Source: an uncultured Clostridia bacterium
Lineage (GTDB): Bacteria > Bacillota_I > Bacilli_A > RF39 > UBA660
Reading direction: 5' to 3'
NCBI GenBank assembly: GCA_947643225.1
Contig: CANRVH010000001.1
Location: forward strand, 6,868 to 70,867
DNA: 64,000 nucleotides
In this document: positions 6,385 through 56,037 of the stretch, piece after piece
Layout of the letters: the number at the start of each line of letters is the position of its first letter
Position numbering within the stretch: the stretch's first letter is position 1
Position numbers and translations under genes: made by a program
The notes under the pieces: generated by a model
What the model was told of the DNA's origin: nothing
Database searches by the model: none
What the model saw: only the letters and a program-made list of their open reading frames with translations

Positions 6385-7656
6385 ATGAAAAATAATAAAA
6401 TAACAAAAACAATGTTAGTATTACTAATTACAATTACATCATTTTTTACAACAATGAGTAATGCCTTTGCTGAAGTGCCAAATAAAATTAATGTGACATC
6501 AACACCAGCTGTCAAAGGATATATTGGAGAAAAAGTAAACTTTGGAACAAAATCATTAAATGATGGTAGTGTTGCATACTGTTTAGATTACAATAAGTTA
6601 ACTCCAGATCATGCTATTGGAACATTAGCAGGTGAAATGGATGCAGGAATGGCCTATTTAATTGAAAATGGTTATCCACATAAAACCATAACAGGAGATA
6701 AAGCAAAAGATTATTATATTACACAAGTAGCAATTTGGTGGTATTTAGATGAAACAACAGGATCAACAAACTTAACTAATGAATTTAAAACAACAGATAG
6801 TGATCCACAAAATTTAAGACCAACCATAAAAAAGCTAGTAGATAATGCCAAAATAGTTAAAAATAAAGGATACAAAAATCCAAGTCTATCAGCAACAATC
6901 ACAAATAGAAAATTAACGATCTCAACAGATAAAAAATATTATATTTCAGACGAGATAAAAGTAAATTTAACAGATTTAGAAAGTTATACAGTTTCATTAA
7001 CAACCGCACCTGAAGGAAGTTATATAGCAGATGGAAAAGGAAATAAGAAAACAACTTTCCAAAAAGGAGAAACATTTAAAGTTTATGTCAAACAAACTGA
7101 TCAAAAAATTAAAAAAAGTGATATTAAGATAAAAATTAGTGGAACAACAACAATAAATAAAGTATACAAGTATAATCCAGAAAATGATGTAGAGCAAAGA
7201 ATATTAACTGCAGTTCTTTATCCAACAACAATAAAAAAAGAACAAGATCTATCTTTGACAATCTCACCATCAAAAGTAACAATTAATAAAATTGATGCAG
7301 AAACAAAAAAAGCCTTAGCAGGGGCAGTTCTTGTAGTAAAAGACAAAGCTGGAAATATTGTTGCAGAATTTACAACAAGTGAAGAATCTTATATTATTGA
7401 AGACTTAAGTAATGGAGAATACGAAGTATCAGAAAAAAGTGCTCCCGAAGGATATATCTTAAGCGAAAAAACATATCAATTTACGATTGATGATGATAAC
7501 AGAAATCACACAGTCATATTTGAAAATTATAAAGAAATATATGTTCCAGATACAAACTCTAATAGCACAATAATGTATATACTAGGTACAATCATAATGG
7601 TATCAGGTATCTCATTTGTAATCTACAATGCTAAGAAAAAACAAATTAATAAATAA
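6385..7656 (+). CDS. thioester-domain (TED) surface adhesin with a CnaB/SpaA-type domain and a non-canonical sortase sorting signal
   Basis: Signal peptide present. The TED Cys motif AYCLDYNK and Gln motif YITQVAIWWY are both there. A CnaB-type domain reads AGAVLVVKDKAGN…EYEVSEKSAPEGY. The C-terminus is IYVPDTNSNST followed by a hydrophobic helix and a KKKQ tail. Confidence 0.75.
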   Translation: MKNNKITKTMLVLLITITSFFTTMSNAFAEVPNKINVTSTPAVKGYIGEKVNFGTKSLNDGSVAYCLDYNKLTPDHAIGTLAGEMDAGMAYLIENGYPHKTITGDKAKDYYITQVAIWWYLDETTGSTNLTNEFKTTDSDPQNLRPTIKKLVDNAKIVKNKGYKNPSLSATITNRKLTISTDKKYYISDEIKVNLTDLESYTVSLTTAPEGSYIADGKGNKKTTFQKGETFKVYVKQTDQKIKKSDIKIKISGTTTINKVYKYNPENDVEQRILTAVLYPTTIKKEQDLSLTISPSKVTINKIDAETKKALAGAVLVVKDKAGNIVAEFTTSEESYIIEDLSNGEYEVSEKSAPEGYILSEKTYQFTIDDDNRNHTVIFENYKEIYVPDTNSNSTIMYILGTIIMVSGISFVIYNAKKKQINK

Positions 7657-46771: not shown

Positions 46772-47629
46772 ATGTCTTTTATTTTAACTGCAAGTGCCAA
46801 TATTTGTTCAGATTTTGTTTTAGCAACAATATTAAGTATTATAAGAAGAGGACTTAATCTGATTCAAATCATTGTTCCATTCGTTTTACTTATATCAGGA
46901 ATATTACGATTTATAAAATTAATGTTAAATCCAGATAATGATAAAAAAGGCATGAAAGCCTTCTTTAACTCAATTATAGCAGCAGTTATTATCTTTTTTT
47001 TACCAGCAATAATAAATACAATGATGAATATCATTAATGAATCAGGTGAAGTAGGAATAACAGATGATCAATATTTAACTGTTTTCAATCTATCAAGTTG
47101 TTGGACAGCTGCTGAAAATACTCAAGCAGAAATGGATTCTGTAGCAGAAAGTGGTGGCTCCAATAGTTCAACGATAAAAGACGAATACAAAAAATATATT
47201 TTGCTAAATGATACCTCGAATATAACTCCCTTCGAACGTCCAAATTCTTCTAGCAATGCCCAAAATACAGAAATGGGAACAAAAATCATCAATTATGCCA
47301 AACAATTTATTGGGAGACCTTATGTATGGGGAGGGAATAGCTTAACAAACGGAACAGATTGTAGTGGATTTATTCATTTGGTTTATGCTAACTTTGGAAT
47401 TAATGTTCCAAGGCAATCCACGGCATTCAGAACAATAGGAACAGAAGTACCAAGTATTAATGATGCACGAGCAGGTGACATCATTTGTTACAATGAACAC
47501 GTTGCTTTGTTCCAAGGAGATGGACTAAAAATTGTTCATGCTAAAAGTTCTAAAACAGGAATAGTAGAAGACCAAACTCCTTTTTATGGAAGTAAAAGTG
47601 TAATCACAATTAGAAGAGTAGTAAATTAA
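46772..47629 (+). CDS. membrane protein with a novel N-terminal two-TM domain fused to a C-terminal NlpC/P60 peptidoglycan endopeptidase domain
   Basis: NlpC/P60 core GRPYVWGGNSLTNGTDCSGFIHLVYANFGINVP…HVALFQGDG…HA. The N-terminal domain of about 120 aa is shared with the next gene. Confidence 0.7.
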   Translation: MSFILTASANICSDFVLATILSIIRRGLNLIQIIVPFVLLISGILRFIKLMLNPDNDKKGMKAFFNSIIAAVIIFFLPAIINTMMNIINESGEVGITDDQYLTVFNLSSCWTAAENTQAEMDSVAESGGSNSSTIKDEYKKYILLNDTSNITPFERPNSSSNAQNTEMGTKIINYAKQFIGRPYVWGGNSLTNGTDCSGFIHLVYANFGINVPRQSTAFRTIGTEVPSINDARAGDIICYNEHVALFQGDGLKIVHAKSSKTGIVEDQTPFYGSKSVITIRRVVN

Positions 47630-47642
47630 AGAAGGTGATGAA

Positions 47643-48068
47643 ATGATTTATCTAGCAGAATCAATTTGTAGAGACTATACTTTAGCAACAATTTTATCGA
47701 TAATAAAAAGAGCACTTACCTTAATTCAAGTCGTAGTTCCCATAGTTTTACTTATATCTGGTATCATGCAGTTTATAAAATTAATGTTAAATCCAGATAA
47801 TGATAAAAAAAAATTAAAAGCCTTTTTAAATTCAATTATAGCAGCAACAATTATTTTTTTCTTACCATTAATTATAAATATATCCATGAATATCATCAAT
47901 ATCAATTATGAAGCAGGAATAGCAAAAGATGATATAATTACAGCTTTTGATATTAGTAGTTGTTGGGAGAAAGTAGATCAAATCCAAGATGAAATGGACT
48001 CAGCAAATGAGACAAAAAGTAGTACCATAAAAGAGGAAGAAGAAAAGAAATTGACCACATTAAAGTAA
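47643..48068 (+). CDS. paralogue of the N-terminal domain of the preceding gene, lacking the NlpC/P60 domain
   Basis: About 65% amino-acid identity to residues 1-130 of the 46772 product (LATILSII[KR]R.L.LIQ..VP.VLLISGI..FIKLMLNPDNDKK..KAF.NSIIAA.IIFFLP.IIN). It contains an A9 run. Confidence 0.5.
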   Translation: MIYLAESICRDYTLATILSIIKRALTLIQVVVPIVLLISGIMQFIKLMLNPDNDKKKLKAFLNSIIAATIIFFLPLIINISMNIININYEAGIAKDDIITAFDISSCWEKVDQIQDEMDSANETKSSTIKEEEEKKLTTLK

Positions 48069-49647: not shown

Positions 49648-50307
49648 ATGTATACAATATGTTTAGTAGAAGATGAAACGGATCTTTCTAGTTTAGTTAA
49701 AGTCTACCTAGAAAAAGATGGGTACGATGTAATATGCTTTACTAAAGGAAAAGATGCAATTAATTATATTGATCAAAAAGTAGATTTATGGATATTAGAT
49801 ATTATGCTTGCAGATGACTACAGTGGTTATGACGTAATTGGAGAAATTAGAAAAAAGGATATTAATGTTCCAGTTATTTTTACATCAGCAAGAGACCAAG
49901 ATTTAGATAAAATATTAGGACTAGAGCTTGGAAGTGATGATTACATCACTAAACCATATTCCAGTAAAGAACTTGTTCTAAGAGTAAACAACATCATCAA
50001 AAGAGTCTATAAAAATAAAGAAAATAATTTGCTAAATTATGATATTTATAAAATAGATATGAATAAAAGAATAGCACTAAAAGAAGAAAAAGAACTAAAT
50101 CTCACAACTTTAGAATTTGACCTATTGTTATTATTTGTAAATAATATAGGAAAAGGTTTTTCAAGAGATGAAATTTTAAACACAGTATGGGGTAGTGACT
50201 ATTTCGGAACAGATAGAGTAGTAGATGACTTAGTACGAAGATTAAGAAAGAAAATGCCAAAACTAAAAATTTCAACAATTTATGGGTTTGGATATCGCTT
50301 ATCATGA
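49648..50307 (+). CDS. OmpR-family two-component response regulator
   Basis: Receiver domain with DLWILDIML (phospho-acceptor Asp) and a winged-helix C-terminus (…LTTLEFDLLLLFVNN…GYRL). Confidence 0.85.
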   Translation: MYTICLVEDETDLSSLVKVYLEKDGYDVICFTKGKDAINYIDQKVDLWILDIMLADDYSGYDVIGEIRKKDINVPVIFTSARDQDLDKILGLELGSDDYITKPYSSKELVLRVNNIIKRVYKNKENNLLNYDIYKIDMNKRIALKEEKELNLTTLEFDLLLLFVNNIGKGFSRDEILNTVWGSDYFGTDRVVDDLVRRLRKKMPKLKISTIYGFGYRLS

Positions 50308-51575
50308 GTTATAAAAATGCAACCCTTAGTAAACAATTATCATTTATTATTATATCCATTTTTGTTATAGTCTTTATCTCATTAGGAATTGTTTTACCAA
50401 AGACACTAATTCCTGTTGCAGAAGAAAATATCTATTCCTATCTTAGTGAACCCTTAAAATTAATGCAGTCTAACTTTAATAAAGATCTAACTCCATCTAC
50501 AATAGCCTATCTTTATATGATCAATGATCAGATAGTCAGTAGTGATAATTTATCAGAAGTCTTAAAAACCAAAAATACAAATGAACTAATTAAATATATT
50601 AAAGATACTTATGGTAAATTTAGCTATAAACATAGGACTTATTATTACTATCAAATACAAAAAAATGGTATAAAAAAAATTGCTTTAACAGATGACTCAT
50701 ATATCAAAGAAATAAAAGAAAAAATTTTAAATGCCATATTACCAATAGTATTAGGAACTTTTCTTTTAATAGGATTAATATTAGGTATTTGGATTTCTAT
50801 TATTGTCATAAAAATAGAACATCTAAAAGAAAAAGTAGATAATATTGATAACTCAGATTATAACCATAAAATAGACTTTAAAACATCAGATGAAATAAAA
50901 TCTTTAGGTTTAGCAATGGAAGATATGCGAATTTCCTTAAAAAGTCAGGAGGAATATCGCAATCAAATGTATCAAAATATTTCACATGATTTTAAAACAC
51001 CTCTCACAGTGATAAAATCATATATCGAAGCGGTCGATGATAAGGTTGAAGATCCCACTAATGCACTTCAAATTATCAAAGATCAAACAGAAAAATTAGA
51101 AACAAAAGTACACTCACTTCTTTACTTAAATAAACTAGATTATCTTAAAAGTAGTAAAGTAGAAATTATTCCCATTGATATGGAAAAAATGATTACTGAT
51201 GAAGTAAATAAATTCAAATGGAAAAGAAAAGATATTGAATTTAAAGTTACTATAGATCACAAATCAAAATTTGTTGGAACAAACGAGCATTGGGAAACAA
51301 TTCTAGACAATTTATTAAATAACTTTATGAGATATGCTAGGAAAACAATCAAAATCACTGCTAAACAAAATAAATTAATTTTATATAATGATGGATCAAA
51401 TATAGACAATGAATTACTTGAAGGAATCTTTACTCCGTTTCGGAAAGGAATCAAAGGTGAATTTGGTTTAGGTCTTTCAATAGTCAAAAAGACCCTGAAT
51501 ATCATTGGTTATAATATTTTTGTTAAAAATGAAAAAAAAGGAGTTTCCTTTACTATAGTTAGAATTCATAAGTAA
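50304..51575 (+). CDS. sensor histidine kinase (HisKA + HATPase_c), cognate to the upstream regulator
   Basis: Two TM helices. H-box ISHDFKTPLTVIKSYIEAV. N- and G-boxes LLNNFMRYA…GLGLSIVKK. The start overlaps the regulator stop. Confidence 0.8.
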   Translation: MSYKNATLSKQLSFIIISIFVIVFISLGIVLPKTLIPVAEENIYSYLSEPLKLMQSNFNKDLTPSTIAYLYMINDQIVSSDNLSEVLKTKNTNELIKYIKDTYGKFSYKHRTYYYYQIQKNGIKKIALTDDSYIKEIKEKILNAILPIVLGTFLLIGLILGIWISIIVIKIEHLKEKVDNIDNSDYNHKIDFKTSDEIKSLGLAMEDMRISLKSQEEYRNQMYQNISHDFKTPLTVIKSYIEAVDDKVEDPTNALQIIKDQTEKLETKVHSLLYLNKLDYLKSSKVEIIPIDMEKMITDEVNKFKWKRKDIEFKVTIDHKSKFVGTNEHWETILDNLLNNFMRYARKTIKITAKQNKLILYNDGSNIDNELLEGIFTPFRKGIKGEFGLGLSIVKKTLNIIGYNIFVKNEKKGVSFTIVRIHK

Positions 51576-51602
51576 ATATCATAAGATATTTGCTTTTTTC
51601 GA
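51576..51602 (+). terminator. rho-independent terminator
   Basis: AAATATCATAAGATATTTGCTTTTTTCG. Confidence 0.5.
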
Positions 51603-51618
51603 GTAAATACGATATAAT

Positions 51619-52833
51619 ATGCATATTAAAAAGAGGCGGTATAGAAAAATGCGAGGAAGAAAATCAAATTGGATAACACCTTATAATTTAGTAAAAGCAT
51701 ATTATCTTCATCATGGTAACTTAGATGTTCCTAGTAGCTACAGAACAAAAAATGGTTATGAAGAAGACCCTGAAGGATTTGATATAGGAAGATGGTTATC
51801 TAAACAAAGATATGGTTATATTGAAAACGAAAATTATAATTTGACAGACAGACAAATAAAATTATTAAATGATATAGAAATGATTTGGGATATTCATGAA
51901 TACAGATGGGATAAAATGTATAATTTAGCAAAGTCATATTATCTTCATCATGGTAACTTAGATGTTCCTAGTAATTTCAGAACAAAAAATGGTTATGAAG
52001 AAGACCCTGAAGGATTTGATTTAGGAAATAAGATAATATATCAAAGGGAAGCTTACAAAGAATCTAGATTGAGTAAAGCTAGAGAAAAAAAGTTAAATGA
52101 TATAGAAATGATTTGGGATCTTAATGAATATAGATGGAATATAAATTATTCTTTACTTGAAAATTATTATAATCACTATAATAGAAAAGAAAAATTAGAA
52201 GTAAATTTGGATTGGATAGATACACAAAGAAGAAAATATAGGGGAAGGATAAAAGGTGTACTCACTGATAAACAAATAATGTTATTAGAAAAATTAAACT
52301 TTGATTGGTTTGCAAAAAAAGATTTGCAATATCAAACCGAAATCATTACCTCTGATAATAATAATCGAAAAAGTATAGAAATTTTTAACCGATTTCGATC
52401 TTATTTGAATAATCTTCCAAAAGATGTTAATATACTTTCTAAGGAGGAAATAAATCAAGGATTTATTGATCAGTTAAATGGAAAAAGAGAAAATAATAAT
52501 CGAATAGTAACTAGTTTAGAAGAAGCAATATATGAAACCGTAAAAGTATACGATTATAAAAAAAATTCTAATAAAATAGAGATATTAATATACTATTTAT
52601 TGCTACATATAGACAGAATGGATCAATATGAGGATGCTATTTTATGTTTTCCAAAAAACAATGGAGTACAAGAATACCTTAGAAATGCCGGAAAAGAAAA
52701 TCTATTACAAGAAATACGTAATATAGTATCTACTGAACACTGTGACATCGATATAAGTAACCTAGATATTCTTTATCAAGAATATTCGAATTATTGTTAT
52801 ACAAAGGATACAATAAGGAGGAAAAAGAAATGA
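51619..52833 (+). CDS. protein with four tandem helicase-associated (HA, PF03457-like) repeats and a C-terminal domain of unknown function
   Basis: The repeat W/Y..K.YYLHHGNLDVPS..RTKNGYEEDPEGFD[IL]G recurs, consistent with HA repeats. The C-terminal 130 aa are paralogous to the next ORF. Confidence 0.55.
   Translation: MHIKKRRYRKMRGRKSNWITPYNLVKAYYLHHGNLDVPSSYRTKNGYEEDPEGFDIGRWLSKQRYGYIENENYNLTDRQIKLLNDIEMIWDIHEYRWDKMYNLAKSYYLHHGNLDVPSNFRTKNGYEEDPEGFDLGNKIIYQREAYKESRLSKAREKKLNDIEMIWDLNEYRWNINYSLLENYYNHYNRKEKLEVNLDWIDTQRRKYRGRIKGVLTDKQIMLLEKLNFDWFAKKDLQYQTEIITSDNNNRKSIEIFNRFRSYLNNLPKDVNILSKEEINQGFIDQLNGKRENNNRIVTSLEEAIYETVKVYDYKKNSNKIEILIYYLLLHIDRMDQYEDAILCFPKNNGVQEYLRNAGKENLLQEIRNIVSTEHCDIDISNLDILYQEYSNYCYTKDTIRRKKK
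51691..52160 (+). repeat. intragenic tandem duplication: two units of about 235 bp with near-identical flanks
   Basis: The stretch tattatcttcatcatggtaacttagatgttcctagta…aaaaatggttatgaagaagaccctgaaggatttgat occurs at 51696-51790 and again at 51934-52028. The stretch gatatagaaatgatttgggat occurs at about 51873 and again at about 52103. Confidence 0.7.
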
Positions 52834-53177
52834 AAAAAAGTAACCAAGTAAAAAGTTTAGAAGAAGCCATATATAAAACATTAAAAAGTTACGGGTATGA
52901 TGAACTACCAGAACGAGCAACATATTTGATTTATATAATTGTAGCACATATAGATAGAATGGACAAATATGAAGATGCTATTTTATGTTTTACAGAAAAT
53001 GATGGTGCCCAGGAATACATTAGAACCAAAGGAAAACAAGCACTATTAGAGGAAATGAATGCCTTAATATCAACTGAAAGTAAGAATATAGATCTTTACC
53101 AAGAGTATTCAAAATGCTGCTATACTAGGCTATGTAATCAGAACAAAGGTGAAAAACAAAAAGTAAAGGTAAAATAA
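52830..53177 (+). CDS. stand-alone paralogue of the C-terminal domain of the HA-repeat protein
   Basis: SLEEAIYKTLKSYGYDE…HIDRMDKYEDAILCF…AQEYIR…YQEYSKCCYT parallels residues 300-400 of the 51619 product. ATG 52830 overlaps the upstream TGA (ATGA), with an AGGAGG RBS. Confidence 0.5.
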   Translation: MKKSNQVKSLEEAIYKTLKSYGYDELPERATYLIYIIVAHIDRMDKYEDAILCFTENDGAQEYIRTKGKQALLEEMNALISTESKNIDLYQEYSKCCYTRLCNQNKGEKQKVKVK

Positions 53178-53178
53178 A

Positions 53179-53212
53179 AAAGAAAAATTATAGTTTCTTT
53201 TTTTATTTTCCG
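53179..53212 (+). terminator. rho-independent terminator
   Basis: AAAAGAAAAATTATAGTTTCTTTTTTTATTTT. Confidence 0.55.
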
Positions 53213-53235
53213 GAAATACTAAAAATGGTGAGATC

Positions 53236-54024
53236 ATGAAAATTTTAATAACAGGTGGAAGGGGAGGAATAGCTTATTTAACAGCTTCCAAACTTTCTAA
53301 ACTAGGTCATAAAATTTATCTTTGTACTCATACAAGTAAACAATTAGAGACCTTAAAAAAGAAAATAAAAAAAGAACAATTAAATATTGTGCCCTATAAA
53401 CTAGATATTACAAATAAAGATGATTTACAATTATTAGATAAATTAGATTATGACATAGTATGGGCCCATGCTGGAATAGGAAATGGGGGAACTCTTCTAG
53501 CAATGGAAGTAGATGTATTAAGAGAAAATTATGAAACAAATATTTTTGGAACAATGGAGGTAGTAAGAAAGGCTTATTTGAATTTTAAACAACAAAAGAA
53601 AAAAGGAAAAATTTTTGTAACTTCCTCACTTGCAGGAATGCTACCACTTCCTTATCTTTCTTGTTACACTTCCTCTAAAGCAGCATTATCTATGTTATGT
53701 TTTACCCTAAAAAAGGAACTAAAAGAATCAGGTACTAATATTACGATTTCTTTAATTGAACCAGGTGCTTATAAAACTGGCTTTAATGAAGTAATGATAG
53801 AAAATAAAGAAAAATTTTTAAAGACGAAAAATATATTTTATAATGATAGAAAAAAAATAACTCAATCACAGAAGAAATTATTCAATTTAATTGAAAATAA
53901 GAATATTGACAAATTAGTAAATAAAATAATAAAAGAAATGACAAAAGAAAATCCAAAATTTAAAATAAGAAGTCCATTTATACAAGCATTATTTACTAAA
54001 TTATATTATTTATTCTATAGATAG
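53236..54024 (+). CDS. short-chain dehydrogenase/reductase (SDR) family oxidoreductase
   Basis: Rossmann ILITGGRGGIAY, catalytic YTSSKAAL (YxxxK), and the NITISLIEPGAYKTGF motif. Confidence 0.8.
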   Translation: MKILITGGRGGIAYLTASKLSKLGHKIYLCTHTSKQLETLKKKIKKEQLNIVPYKLDITNKDDLQLLDKLDYDIVWAHAGIGNGGTLLAMEVDVLRENYETNIFGTMEVVRKAYLNFKQQKKKGKIFVTSSLAGMLPLPYLSCYTSSKAALSMLCFTLKKELKESGTNITISLIEPGAYKTGFNEVMIENKEKFLKTKNIFYNDRKKITQSQKKLFNLIENKNIDKLVNKIIKEMTKENPKFKIRSPFIQALFTKLYYLFYR

Positions 54025-54959
54025 ATAATATTATTTCTTTATCTTTAATAAACAAATCATTAATCCAATTCACTCTTAGCTACTAGAACTTACTTTTATT
54101 CCCAGAAAATCTTGATAATATTTAAACTAAACATCAGAAAGAGATAGATCTTTTGTCTTAAAAGTTGATAAATAGTCTTATCAATACAATAGCAAAGAAT
54201 GTCCTAATTTAAATTATAAATATTATTTTTATGGATCATTTTCTTATAACAACAATAATTATATAATAAGTAAAAACTTCCACATAAAAAATATTGATCA
54301 TCTTTTCTATTTCTTAAATAGTTTCAAATTAATGGGTAATTATATATATATCATTTTACAAGATTAATATAACAAAGCTTTAACTTCGACAAAACATTCA
54401 CAATTTAAAAACTCCATCTGTTCCTTTTCATTAATTCCTAGCAACTATCTCTTGGTAACTTCCTTTTATTCCATAAGGTGATACGATAACATCCAGGATA
54501 GGATTTCTTGTAGAAATGGAGCAATCTTTATGGAGTTTCATCTTAATATTCCATAAATCAAAAATAGTTTTAATATTATCCACTACATAAGTAAAAAAAT
54601 GATTGTATTATAACATGGATGAGAAAAAAACAGTAAAATTGATATTACTAAAATTATTTTTATATAGAGAAAGTCAGATAAATAGCTTTGTAAAATCATA
54701 ATACTCGTATAATCAATTTTAAGGAAAGATCATTCCAAAAGGCTGTTTTTTTTCTTTTCTATATTTTTGATTTATTATACCTCTAGAAGTATAATAAATC
54801 TTGCACTCCTATTCTTAGTTGTAATTATTTTACTTCTAAAATAATAAAAGCATCTGATTTCAACATTAGTTTATTTCAAATGCTATTCTTCAAGGGATTA
54901 CATCTGATTTTTACAATAAAATGTAACTTTTTTATTTTATATTGACATATTCATAATAA

Positions 54960-54995
54960 CATAAAAACGACTTTTTGATAAGTCGTATTTTTATT
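54960..54995 (-). terminator. hairpin with flanking T/A runs, read as an intrinsic terminator downstream of the tRNA on the minus strand (possibly bidirectional)
   Basis: ACGACTTTTTGATAAGTCGT inverted repeat flanked by ATAAAAA and ATTTTT. A second hairpin, ACTCGAAAGTTCGAGT at 55008-55023, directly abuts the tRNA 3' end. Confidence 0.5.
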
Positions 54996-55026
54996 GTCAC
55001 TCGAAAGTTCGAGTTTCCTGTCAATC

Positions 55027-55103
55027 TGGTAGCGCCGGGGAGATTCGAACTCTCGACCTATCGGGTATGAACCGATTGCTCTAGCCAACTGAGCTACAGC
55101 GCC
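55027..55103 (-). tRNA. tRNA with a CAU anticodon (elongator Met or lysidine-type Ile2), 77 nt, with an encoded CCA
   Basis: The reverse complement folds as a cloverleaf: GGCGCUG/UA/GCUC-AGUUGGCUA-GAGC/A/AUCGG-UUCAUAC-CCGAU/AGGUC/GAGAG-UUCGAAU-CUCCC/CGGCGCU/A/CCA. It has two G-U pairs in the acceptor stem and one T-stem mismatch. The anticodon-stem base lacks the three G-C pairs of an initiator. Confidence 0.85.
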
Positions 55104-55122
55104 AAATAAATGAAACAATAAA

Positions 55123-55152
55123 AGTATATCAAAACAAAGAATACTTGACAAT
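55123..55152 (-). promoter_or_regulatory. promoter for the tRNA gene (minus strand TTGTCA-N18-TATACT)
   Basis: The reverse complement of 55123-55152 reads ttgtcaagtattctttgttttgaTATACT and ends about 20 nt upstream of the tRNA 5' end. Confidence 0.4.
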
Positions 55153-55299
55153 ACTTTTTTAAAAATTACAGTAAAAAAATTTCGCAAAGAAAATCTGATA
55201 TAATTACTACATAATAAAAAAGCCATATGTAGTAATGAATAGAAAAAAGAAGAGAACTAAGAAAAGATAAAGATCTAATAAAGGAATTATATACCATTA

Positions 55300-55930
55300 T
55301 ATCTAGATATTTACCTGAGTTATTAACCATGTTTGATAATTTGACTGATACAAGACATCAAAGTTATATGACTTATACAATGAAAGCTATTTGTGTTGCT
55401 AGATTATTCACATTGTTATGTAGAATAACTACTATGACAGATATTTTCACAGATACTTTTGATACAGATAATTGTATTAAAAATATATCTAAAATTTGTA
55501 AACAAAATTTAAAAGAACTTCCTTATTAAGAAACAATTCAATATGTATTTATGAACAAATCAATAGGAATATCCAAAAACTTTAATCCGCTCAAAAATGT
55601 TTAATAAATATAAATATGATGGCTACTTTTAACTATTTATTGATGGAACTAACCTTTCTGGCTATAATAATAATTTAAATAACAATTGTATTAAGAAAAA
55701 ATATAAAGATGGTAAAATTTGTTATTGTTAATATGTTTAAGAATGTAAATTAATTGTGGGTAACATAACTATTAGTCTAGATAGTGAATGGATAGAAAAT
55801 ACAGATAGAATGATACTCAAAAACAAGATTGTAAATCAAGGCTTTTGTAAGAACGGCTAAAAGAATCATTATTTCTTCATTTAATTTACTCATACTATAA
55901 GATAATCACCAGAACCTTGTCTGTAAAATT
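55300..55930 (+). pseudogene. decayed ISAs1-family (H-repeat-associated) transposase remnant
   Basis: The only intact ORF is the 66-aa fragment at 55329-55529: LTDTRHQSYMTYTMKAICVARLFTLLCRITTMTDIF resembles the DDE_Tnp_1_assoc N-terminal domain (DPR…H.L.DIL.IA..A.LCG…). Downstream frames contain …LIDGTNLSG… (compare IDGKTLRGS) interrupted by stops. Confidence 0.4.
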
Positions 55931-56037
55931 TTAACTAAACAAATTTATTTACTCTTTTTCACTGAAAAAATTAATAAAAAAATCTATTGATAATAAGAGA
56001 ATAAAATATTTATGTTATAATAAAAATAGGTGATAAG

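Follow-up and report, generated by a model that had tools for sequence, protein, structure and literature searches.

The 64-kb window analysed here is the whole stretch from position 6,868 to 70,867 of contig CANRVH010000001.1 (assembly GCA_947643225.1), from an uncultured Clostridia bacterium. Between a histidine kinase gene and a short-chain dehydrogenase (SDR) gene, it contains two overlapping genes, here called gene A and gene B. Gene A carries three helicase-associated (HA) repeats, followed by a tail of about 60 amino acids (aa) and a C-terminal domain (CTD), and gene B encodes a second, free copy of the CTD. As it stands, the locus is an ordinary lineage-specific accessory gene pair, helicase-free, with an orphan domain and an apparently translationally coupled free paralogue. 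We lean, with some reserve, towards reading the pair as an accessory cassette in which the HA repeats would be DNA-binding, to judge by the analogous, solved HA domain 2KTA, and the CTD would be a protein-protein pairing module. Gene B would then pair with the CTD of gene A, reproducing the tandem CTD1-CTD2 unit of its relatives. The repeats are old and were partly homogenised by gene conversion, and the adjacency to the two-component system upstream is read as positional.

HA domains usually lie within a helicase polypeptide, an arrangement that Pfam does not require. Gene A matched the Pfam HA family (PF03457) in three stretches with 113 bits (E 7.8e-33), against a curated gathering cut-off of 28.4 bits, and HA was its sole match in a scan of the Pfam library. 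The full-length AlphaFold model (pLDDT 88.6) shows three HA units of three helices each, the short three-helix fold of 2KTA, to which the third repeat, HA3, aligns directly (phmmer, 2kta_A over aa 172-232). In HA1 and HA2, unlike 2KTA (BVU_0683(627-691)), an NGY hairpin is inserted. Gene A further departs from the PF03457 pattern in that it lacks a helicase, its repeats being followed by a tail and an orphan domain outside the Pfam family. A preliminary description of this DNA had recognised HA-type repeats in a 404-aa open reading frame (ORF) and had pointed out the missing helicase, and these features hold: a library scan of the neighbours found no helicase between 44.3 and 62.0 kb, and there is none within about 7-9 kb of gene A. 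The four repeats counted there are in fact three, as a fourth HA repeat in the tail was ruled out by hhalign (probability 0.7%). The rest of the 64-kb window is free of HA and CTD copies.

The closest full-length relatives of gene A are P0003 (527 aa), from an uncultured 'Clostridia' metagenome-assembled genome (MAG; CAOJDX01), and P0004 (515 aa), from a short Logan contig without organism label. Any two of the three proteins are 56-60% identical, and both relatives share with gene A the HA1-HA2-HA3-tail layout, in positional orthology, as well as the CTD family. The true start of gene A is probably the ATG at 51649 (M11), giving a protein of 394 aa, because a methionine and six residues then precede the first Trp, the same number as in P0003 (MSKISPGW versus MRGRKSNW).

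The CTD is a very rare orphan family of about 100-110 aa, with six helices in the alignments and in the gene B model; the preliminary description was right to call it unknown, and its estimate of 130 aa was too long. No family of Pfam, NCBIfam, PHROG or PADLOC corresponds to it. Both window copies align over about 100 aa with seven other sequences and match them at the invariant positions L, A, T, L, H, G, Y, G, E and Y and in the motif NGA(R/Q)(E/D)Y. A word-indexed profile search with the CTD found five further proteins, and an exhaustive HMMER search of 1.84 billion representative proteins (E<=1e-3) brought the family to 24 proteins in total. The majority stand alone, at 93-120 aa; P0072 has two CTD copies, about eight have helical extensions of no recognised kind, and some are fused to HA-tail proteins. 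In one further protein, P0079 (640 aa; L089, 286-2208), the CTD is C-terminal to regions 2, 3 and 4 of an RpoD-like sigma-70 factor. HA arrays are joined to this orphan domain in one small clade; apart from them, the only partners that can be identified for it are sigma-70-type proteins.

In another lineage, stand-alone CTD genes recur beside GATase/Peptidase_C26, YunG-like and VTT-domain genes (L091, L092, L093 and L176), forming a second conserved neighbourhood of the family. Two possible affinities of the CTD were rejected. A single CTD sequence of nine matched IreB/UPF0297 (PF06135; E 0.077), below the profile threshold, and a PDB profile search returned no such match at E<=10; the recurring, weak and inconsistent resemblance to IreB (PDB 5US5, 11% identity) is taken as chance. 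The two small proteins encoded beside helicase-HA genes, described below, are likewise unrelated to the CTD, with hhalign probabilities of 0.3% for the ~100-aa protein and 0.1% for the ~80-aa protein.

Pfam confirmed an OmpR-type regulator and a histidine kinase directly upstream of the pair. A scan for orthologues of the kinase gave 80 loci at 52-67% identity, none of which (0/80) contained an HA or CTD gene. Downstream sequence was long enough in 54 loci, and in 26 of these an SDR homologue begins 24-189 nt behind the kinase; a tRNA-Met gene is found further downstream of the SDR in most relatives checked. Because the kinase loci lack HA and CTD genes and the kinase so often abuts the SDR, genes A and B (about 1.56 kb) are a lineage-specific insertion between the two. 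P0003 and P0006, relatives of gene A, adjoin unrelated genes.

One relative, L090, differs from all these kinase loci. Its kinase is 89% identical to that of the window, and it is the only such relative with a CTD gene at this place. Homology to the window stops about 20 nt before the kinase stop codon. A 318-aa protein with sigma-70 region 4 (Pfam 1.5e-5; SigA region 4 in PDB 3e-5) follows the kinase, and the next gene, P0073, encodes a stand-alone CTD with 40% identity to gene B, the two together occupying 512-1878; the same tRNA-Met lies 145 nt after P0073. Read in this way, the slot between kinase and tRNA-Met is variable, and holds in both the window and L090 a protein of DNA-recognition type together with a CTD gene. 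P0079 and the L090 pair resemble gene A in that the CTD is fused to, or lies behind, a protein that binds DNA or promoters, and L090 is also syntenic. They differ from it in that the partner is sigma region 2-4 or region 4 instead of HA, and neither is similar to gene A outside the CTD.

Given that other CTDs are fused or adjacent to sigma-70-type proteins, a role in transcription or DNA recognition suggests itself, and the A/B pair would most likely act in DNA binding or transcription control. If it depends on the neighbouring two-component system at all, this would be by read-through only. Several observations weigh against the accessory-cassette reading. The kinase and gene A lie on the same strand with a gap of 43 nt and no detected terminator, and co-transcription of A and B with the two-component system by read-through is possible in this strain. 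With pI values of 5.2 and 6.1, HA1 and HA2 are slightly acidic, and the basic parts of the protein are HA3 and the N-terminal peptide only. The sigma association concerns 2 of the 24 CTD proteins, both on short contigs and one perhaps a gene-call fusion, and the stand-alone CTD genes lie in varied housekeeping contexts. Finally, DNA binding, CTD-CTD pairing and the link to transcription are inferred, not shown. The interest of the locus is therefore modest unless the connection of the CTD with sigma or DNA-recognition proteins proves functional; should the CTD turn out to serve DNA-recognition proteins as a pairing module, this would give a first way into the function of HA-only proteins as well as of the CTD family.

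The same slot invites a bolder explanation, which we consider unlikely. The CTD could be a new, very rare family of partner domains for proteins that recognise DNA or promoters, with cassettes of a specificity protein and a CTD being swapped between kinase and tRNA-Met and with the activity of gene A set by pairing of its CTD with gene B. In that case gene A would act as a transcription factor built of HA repeats, or as a specificity subunit resembling sigma, governed by a partner-switching or anti-factor logic that is not described for HA domains.

The second CTD lies, as the preliminary description had it, in a downstream gene whose start codon overlaps the stop codon of gene A. The two window CTDs are 54% identical at the aa level, and their DNA forms a direct repeat (52605-52737 versus 52946-53078, spacing 341) with 75% nt identity; the gene B model has a pLDDT of 78. 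The A/B junction is identical in three other assemblies of the locus (L005, L006 and L007), where gene B is annotated with 115 aa, and P0068 is the gene B protein with one substitution, a 115-aa gene in two other assemblies. The A/B split is genuine. The ATGA overlap and the AGGAGG in front of it suggest that gene B is translated by coupling to gene A. In P0003 and P0004, CTD1 and CTD2 are part of one polypeptide, whereas in the window the second CTD is a separate overlapping gene; the P0003 gene also differs in not being beside a two-component system. The earlier term 'split-off' for the gene B domain presupposes a direction, and the change between the two states could have been either fusion or fission, since the gene A, P0003 and P0004 lineages are equally distant from one another and CTD genes of the stand-alone type are found elsewhere.

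Fission by decay would make gene B an untranslated or functionless remnant, left when a frameshift broke an ancestral protein of three HA repeats, tail and two CTDs. The fused CTDs of both closest full-length relatives would fit such an origin, as would the A-rich, indel-prone junction (AAAAAGAAATGAAAAAAAG). Gene B, however, keeps all the invariant residues of the CTD family, has a perfect AGGAGG 8 nt upstream of the new start within the ATGA arrangement, and shares its junction with the three other assemblies, two of them 0.7% diverged. Since stand-alone CTD genes of its size are moreover the commonest form of the family, we regard decay as quite improbable.

To our knowledge, HA domains are widespread and almost unstudied, what is known being one nuclear magnetic resonance (NMR) structure and a hint of DNA binding. 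A scan of one genome per species returned 249 relatives of gene A, almost all from MAGs of uncultured gut bacteria labelled Bacilli, 'Tenericutes' or CAG:433, and a single genome often has several of them. The best match among these species representatives is 48% identical to gene A, and this species is therefore not among them. Many of the relatives are proteins of 860-1350 aa in which a ResIII/SF2 helicase at the N-terminus is combined with 6-10 HA repeats. Others consist, like gene A, of HA repeats and a tail without helicase, some of them in tandem arrays of five genes. Three loci in gut Bacilli MAGs contain such runs of five consecutive HA-repeat genes (L050, L058 and L076), which indicates a strong lineage-specific expansion of the family. 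The locus shows that HA repeats can form arrays without a helicase, in a family that has expanded within uncultured gut Bacilli. A literature search found nothing on HA-only proteins in these bacteria.

The tail follows the last HA repeat with the consensus WF..QxExIT..N..RK.IE..NR.RSYLN...SKEEIN.GF, to which gene A conforms. It was found at 39 loci by tblastn with the window tail and is detectable in 21 of 52 helicase-HA forms. In the HA-only relatives listed, the tail match ends within a few residues of the C-terminus; the sole HA proteins that continue past the tail into a CTD are the window protein, P0003 and P0004.

The helicase-HA proteins of gut Bacilli share with gene A the HA repeat type, the organism group and, in a subset, the tail. 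Their genes lie in an operon with a gene of ~80 aa (~75-90) upstream in 34 loci and one of ~100 aa (~96-112) downstream in 23 loci, neither protein belonging to a Pfam or NCBIfam family. In these operons (L014-L087; for example, L072 4329-7987), the first small gene overlaps the helicase start and the last one begins 0-3 nt after the helicase gene. Gene A differs in having neither the helicase nor the two small partners; its locus shows no helicase region and is absent from both clusters of helicase-HA neighbours.

DNA binding by HA domains goes back to the NMR study of 2KTA (Mills 2013), as cited in PMC12191111; that paper also describes HA domains fused to PLD defence nucleases, and fusions to TniQ are mentioned as well. 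The PLD fusions raise the possibility that gene A is a defence accessory, acting as a sensor of DNA or modified DNA, or as a decoy, together with type IV restriction-like helicase-HA paralogues. A helicase-HA paralogue indeed gave a weak PADLOC match to mREase_IV (3e-8 over 50 residues), the family varies and is present in several copies, and the cassette occupies a variable slot near a tRNA gene. Against this, genes A and B themselves have no PADLOC or PHROG match, there is no nuclease, methylase or helicase near them, the GC content of the segment is typical of the genome, and relatives are found among housekeeping genes. A defence role thus seems a poor prospect. A phage origin was likewise rejected, the CTD having no match in the phage search; the HA repeats gave one weak match there.

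The conclusion that the repeats are old and were later homogenised comes from comparing gene A with P0003 and P0004. Gene A contains a direct repeat between HA1 and HA2 (51682-51825 versus 51919-52062, spacing 237 nt, 83% identical) and a second one further on (51858-51927 versus 52086-52155, spacing 228 nt, also 83% identical). The HA1/HA2 repeat includes exact tracts of 43, 39 and 27 nt around a centre that is about 50% diverged, with indels. At the protein level, the centre of HA1 is 73% identical to that of HA1 in P0004 and 53% to that in P0003, compared with 37% for the centre of HA2 in the window itself, and the HA3 centre is 63-67% identical to those of HA3 in P0003 and P0004. Because the repeat centres match their positional orthologues better than each other, the triplication into HA1, HA2 and HA3 predates the split of the gene A, P0003 and P0004 lineages.

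The flanks behave differently. Over the N-terminal 40 aa, HA1 and HA2 of the window are 81% identical to each other, and 53-67% identical to any repeat of P0003 or P0004. The copies are thus closer to each other than to their orthologues in the N- and C-terminal blocks only. At identical residues in these blocks, HA1 and HA2 use the same codon at 30/31 positions (N block) and 9/10 positions (C block), against a baseline between orthologues of 0.68 (126/185); the binomial p values are 1e-4 and 3e-5 (pooled blocks, 39/41, ~3e-5). The two window CTDs, by the same test, are at the baseline (35/53, p 0.69). The near-identical flanks of HA1 and HA2 reflect recent partial gene conversion and no new duplication. 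Intragenic conversion has also occurred independently in P0004, whose HA1 and HA2 N segments are 83% identical, and in P0003, where CTD1 and CTD2 have a tract of ~130 nt in common with one mismatch. Helicase-free HA arrays of this kind evolve by intragenic gene conversion.

The exact tracts of 43, 39 and 27 nt could support in-frame unequal recombination, because the spacings of 237 and 228 nt correspond to 79 and 76 codons; to this extent the preliminary description, which called the repeat recombinogenic from its nearly identical flanks, is supported. No sign of copy-number variants was seen in this species, where a 26-nt probe from the HA1 centre had no match in the metagenome scan and the other assemblies either start inside the repeat or, as L007, have an unrelated 5' end. 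In the P0003 lineage, an 881-nt ENA contig (P0067) encodes only one CTD, whose N-half corresponds to CTD1 and whose C-half corresponds to CTD2, which fits an unequal recombinant across the ~130-nt near-identical tract, or an assembly collapse.

The repeats of the window are unlikely to be an artefact of assembly, through expansion or collapse, because the three-repeat layout recurs in the orthologues and the other assemblies of the locus agree with the window. L007, an independent ENA contig, is 100% identical to the window over 51829-53524, and L005 and L006, which come from other samples, match it at 99.3% identity, the former from 51991 and the latter from 52076 onward. Both of the latter start inside an HA repeat, as is expected of short-read assemblers breaking at a repeat, and the N-terminal block of HA1 is spanned by the source assembly alone. 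The few changes among the strain variants comprise 2-3 synonymous and 3-4 non-synonymous ones in gene A and one of each in gene B. The first 125 nt of L007 form an unrelated 5' end that joins the window sequence at 51829, inside the HA1 centre, at a coverage of 2.5x; this is probably a chimeric assembly, with a rearranged allele as a possible alternative.

The preliminary description had read the locus in another way, with a recent tandem duplication of about 235 bp producing two of the HA repeats and with the gene pair perhaps forming the regulon of the OmpR-type two-component system. The near-identical blocks with their exact runs of 39-43 nt, the short same-strand gap behind the kinase with no detected terminator, and the CTD gene that likewise follows the orthologous kinase in L090 are what this proposal has to offer. 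The near-identical direct repeat itself is real, but the word 'recent' is contradicted by the same three-repeat layout in relatives 56-60% identical to gene A, by the positional orthology of the centres in P0003 and P0004, and by the ~50% divergence and the indels in the centre of the unit. A regulon is in turn opposed by the absence of HA and CTD genes from the 80 kinase loci, by the abutment of kinase and SDR in 26 of 54, and by the occurrence of gene A relatives beside unrelated genes. Taken as a whole, the proposal is very doubtful. Least probable of all is programmed -1 frameshifting at G_AAA_AAG just before the stop codon, yielding a fused A-B protein beside the short form: gene B does lie in the -1 frame, an A-AAG Lys slip site stands two codons before the TGA and the relatives make a fused protein, but a site of this kind calls for an X_XXY_YYZ heptamer and a stimulatory element, either a downstream structure or a Shine-Dalgarno sequence ~10 nt ahead of it, and here the heptamer is imperfect, with G instead of A in position 1, the AGGAGG directly adjoins it and the downstream RNA has no structure (-5.4 kcal/mol, z -0.14).

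The features of the accessory cassette and of its surroundings are collected in Table 1.

Table 1. Features of genes A and B and of the flanking DNA, in window coordinates.
Feature	Position	Strand	Basis and remarks
OmpR-type response regulator	49648-50307	+	Pfam; context, outside the cassette
HisKA/HATPase_c histidine kinase	50304-51575	+	Pfam; context, outside the cassette
Possible own promoter of gene A, TTGctt-17 nt-TATAAT	51590-51618	+	Read from the sequence; ends one base before the first ORF ATG
Gene A ORF, 404 aa from the first ATG	51619-52833	+	ORF list, Pfam HA
HA repeat 1	51670-51906	+	aa 18-96; Pfam, repeat alignment
Gene-converted tract, copy 1	51682-51789	+	Partner 51919-52026; 7 differences/108 nt; exact runs of 39 and 43 nt
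Second homogenised tract, copy 1	51858-51927	+	Partner 52086-52155; 27-nt exact core at 51865/52093
HA repeat 2	51907-52134	+	aa 97-172; best Pfam stretch aa 93-164
HA repeat 3	52135-52326	+	aa 173-236; short form without NGY hairpin
Conserved two-helix tail	52327-52503	+	aa 237-295; model helices H238-254, H265-276
CTD copy 1, six-helix orphan domain	52504-52830	+	aa 296-404; alignments, full-length model
AGGAGG Shine-Dalgarno sequence of gene B	52816-52821	+	Within the end of gene A, 8 nt before the ATG; read from the sequence
Gene B, 115 aa, stand-alone CTD paralogue	52830-53177	+	ATG overlaps the gene A TGA (52831-52833): ATGA
Candidate weak terminator after gene B	53168-53211	+	AT-rich inverted repeat, then T-run; repeat search
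SDR (short-chain dehydrogenase)	53236-54024	+	Pfam; context; directly after the kinase in related genomes
tRNA-Met (CAT)	55027-55103	-	Context; conserved far boundary of the variable segment

The evidence for a promoter of gene A's own is weak, as the site in front of the first ATG scores below the threshold of the promoter scan and the region has no excess of promoter-like sites over shuffled sequence. The terminator scan made no call at 53168-53211, the candidate terminator site after gene B. The window, from the chromosome of a gut bacterium, has a GC content of 26.6%, and its genes lie nearly all on the plus strand. The locus is surrounded by housekeeping genes, for YceG, an O-methyltransferase, an NlpC/P60 protein, MurC, SepF, a Na/Ca exchanger and IleS.

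Two further observations concern the surroundings. Downstream of the SDR, a stretch of ~2 kb (54025-56037) has no ORF of >=100 aa on either strand, in surroundings of tightly packed plus-strand genes. It holds only the lone minus-strand tRNA-Met, and the GC skew goes negative at ~53.5-55 kb. The equivalent tRNA-Met is on the kinase strand in most related loci checked, and L141 also has it on the minus strand; the stretch may be inverted or rearranged in this genome. Upstream, 46772-47629 and 47643-48068 are tandem paralogues whose N-terminal membrane-spanning regions are similar by eye; the first has a weak T4SS_pilin-like match in this region and is the sole one of the two with an NlpC/P60 hydrolase domain.

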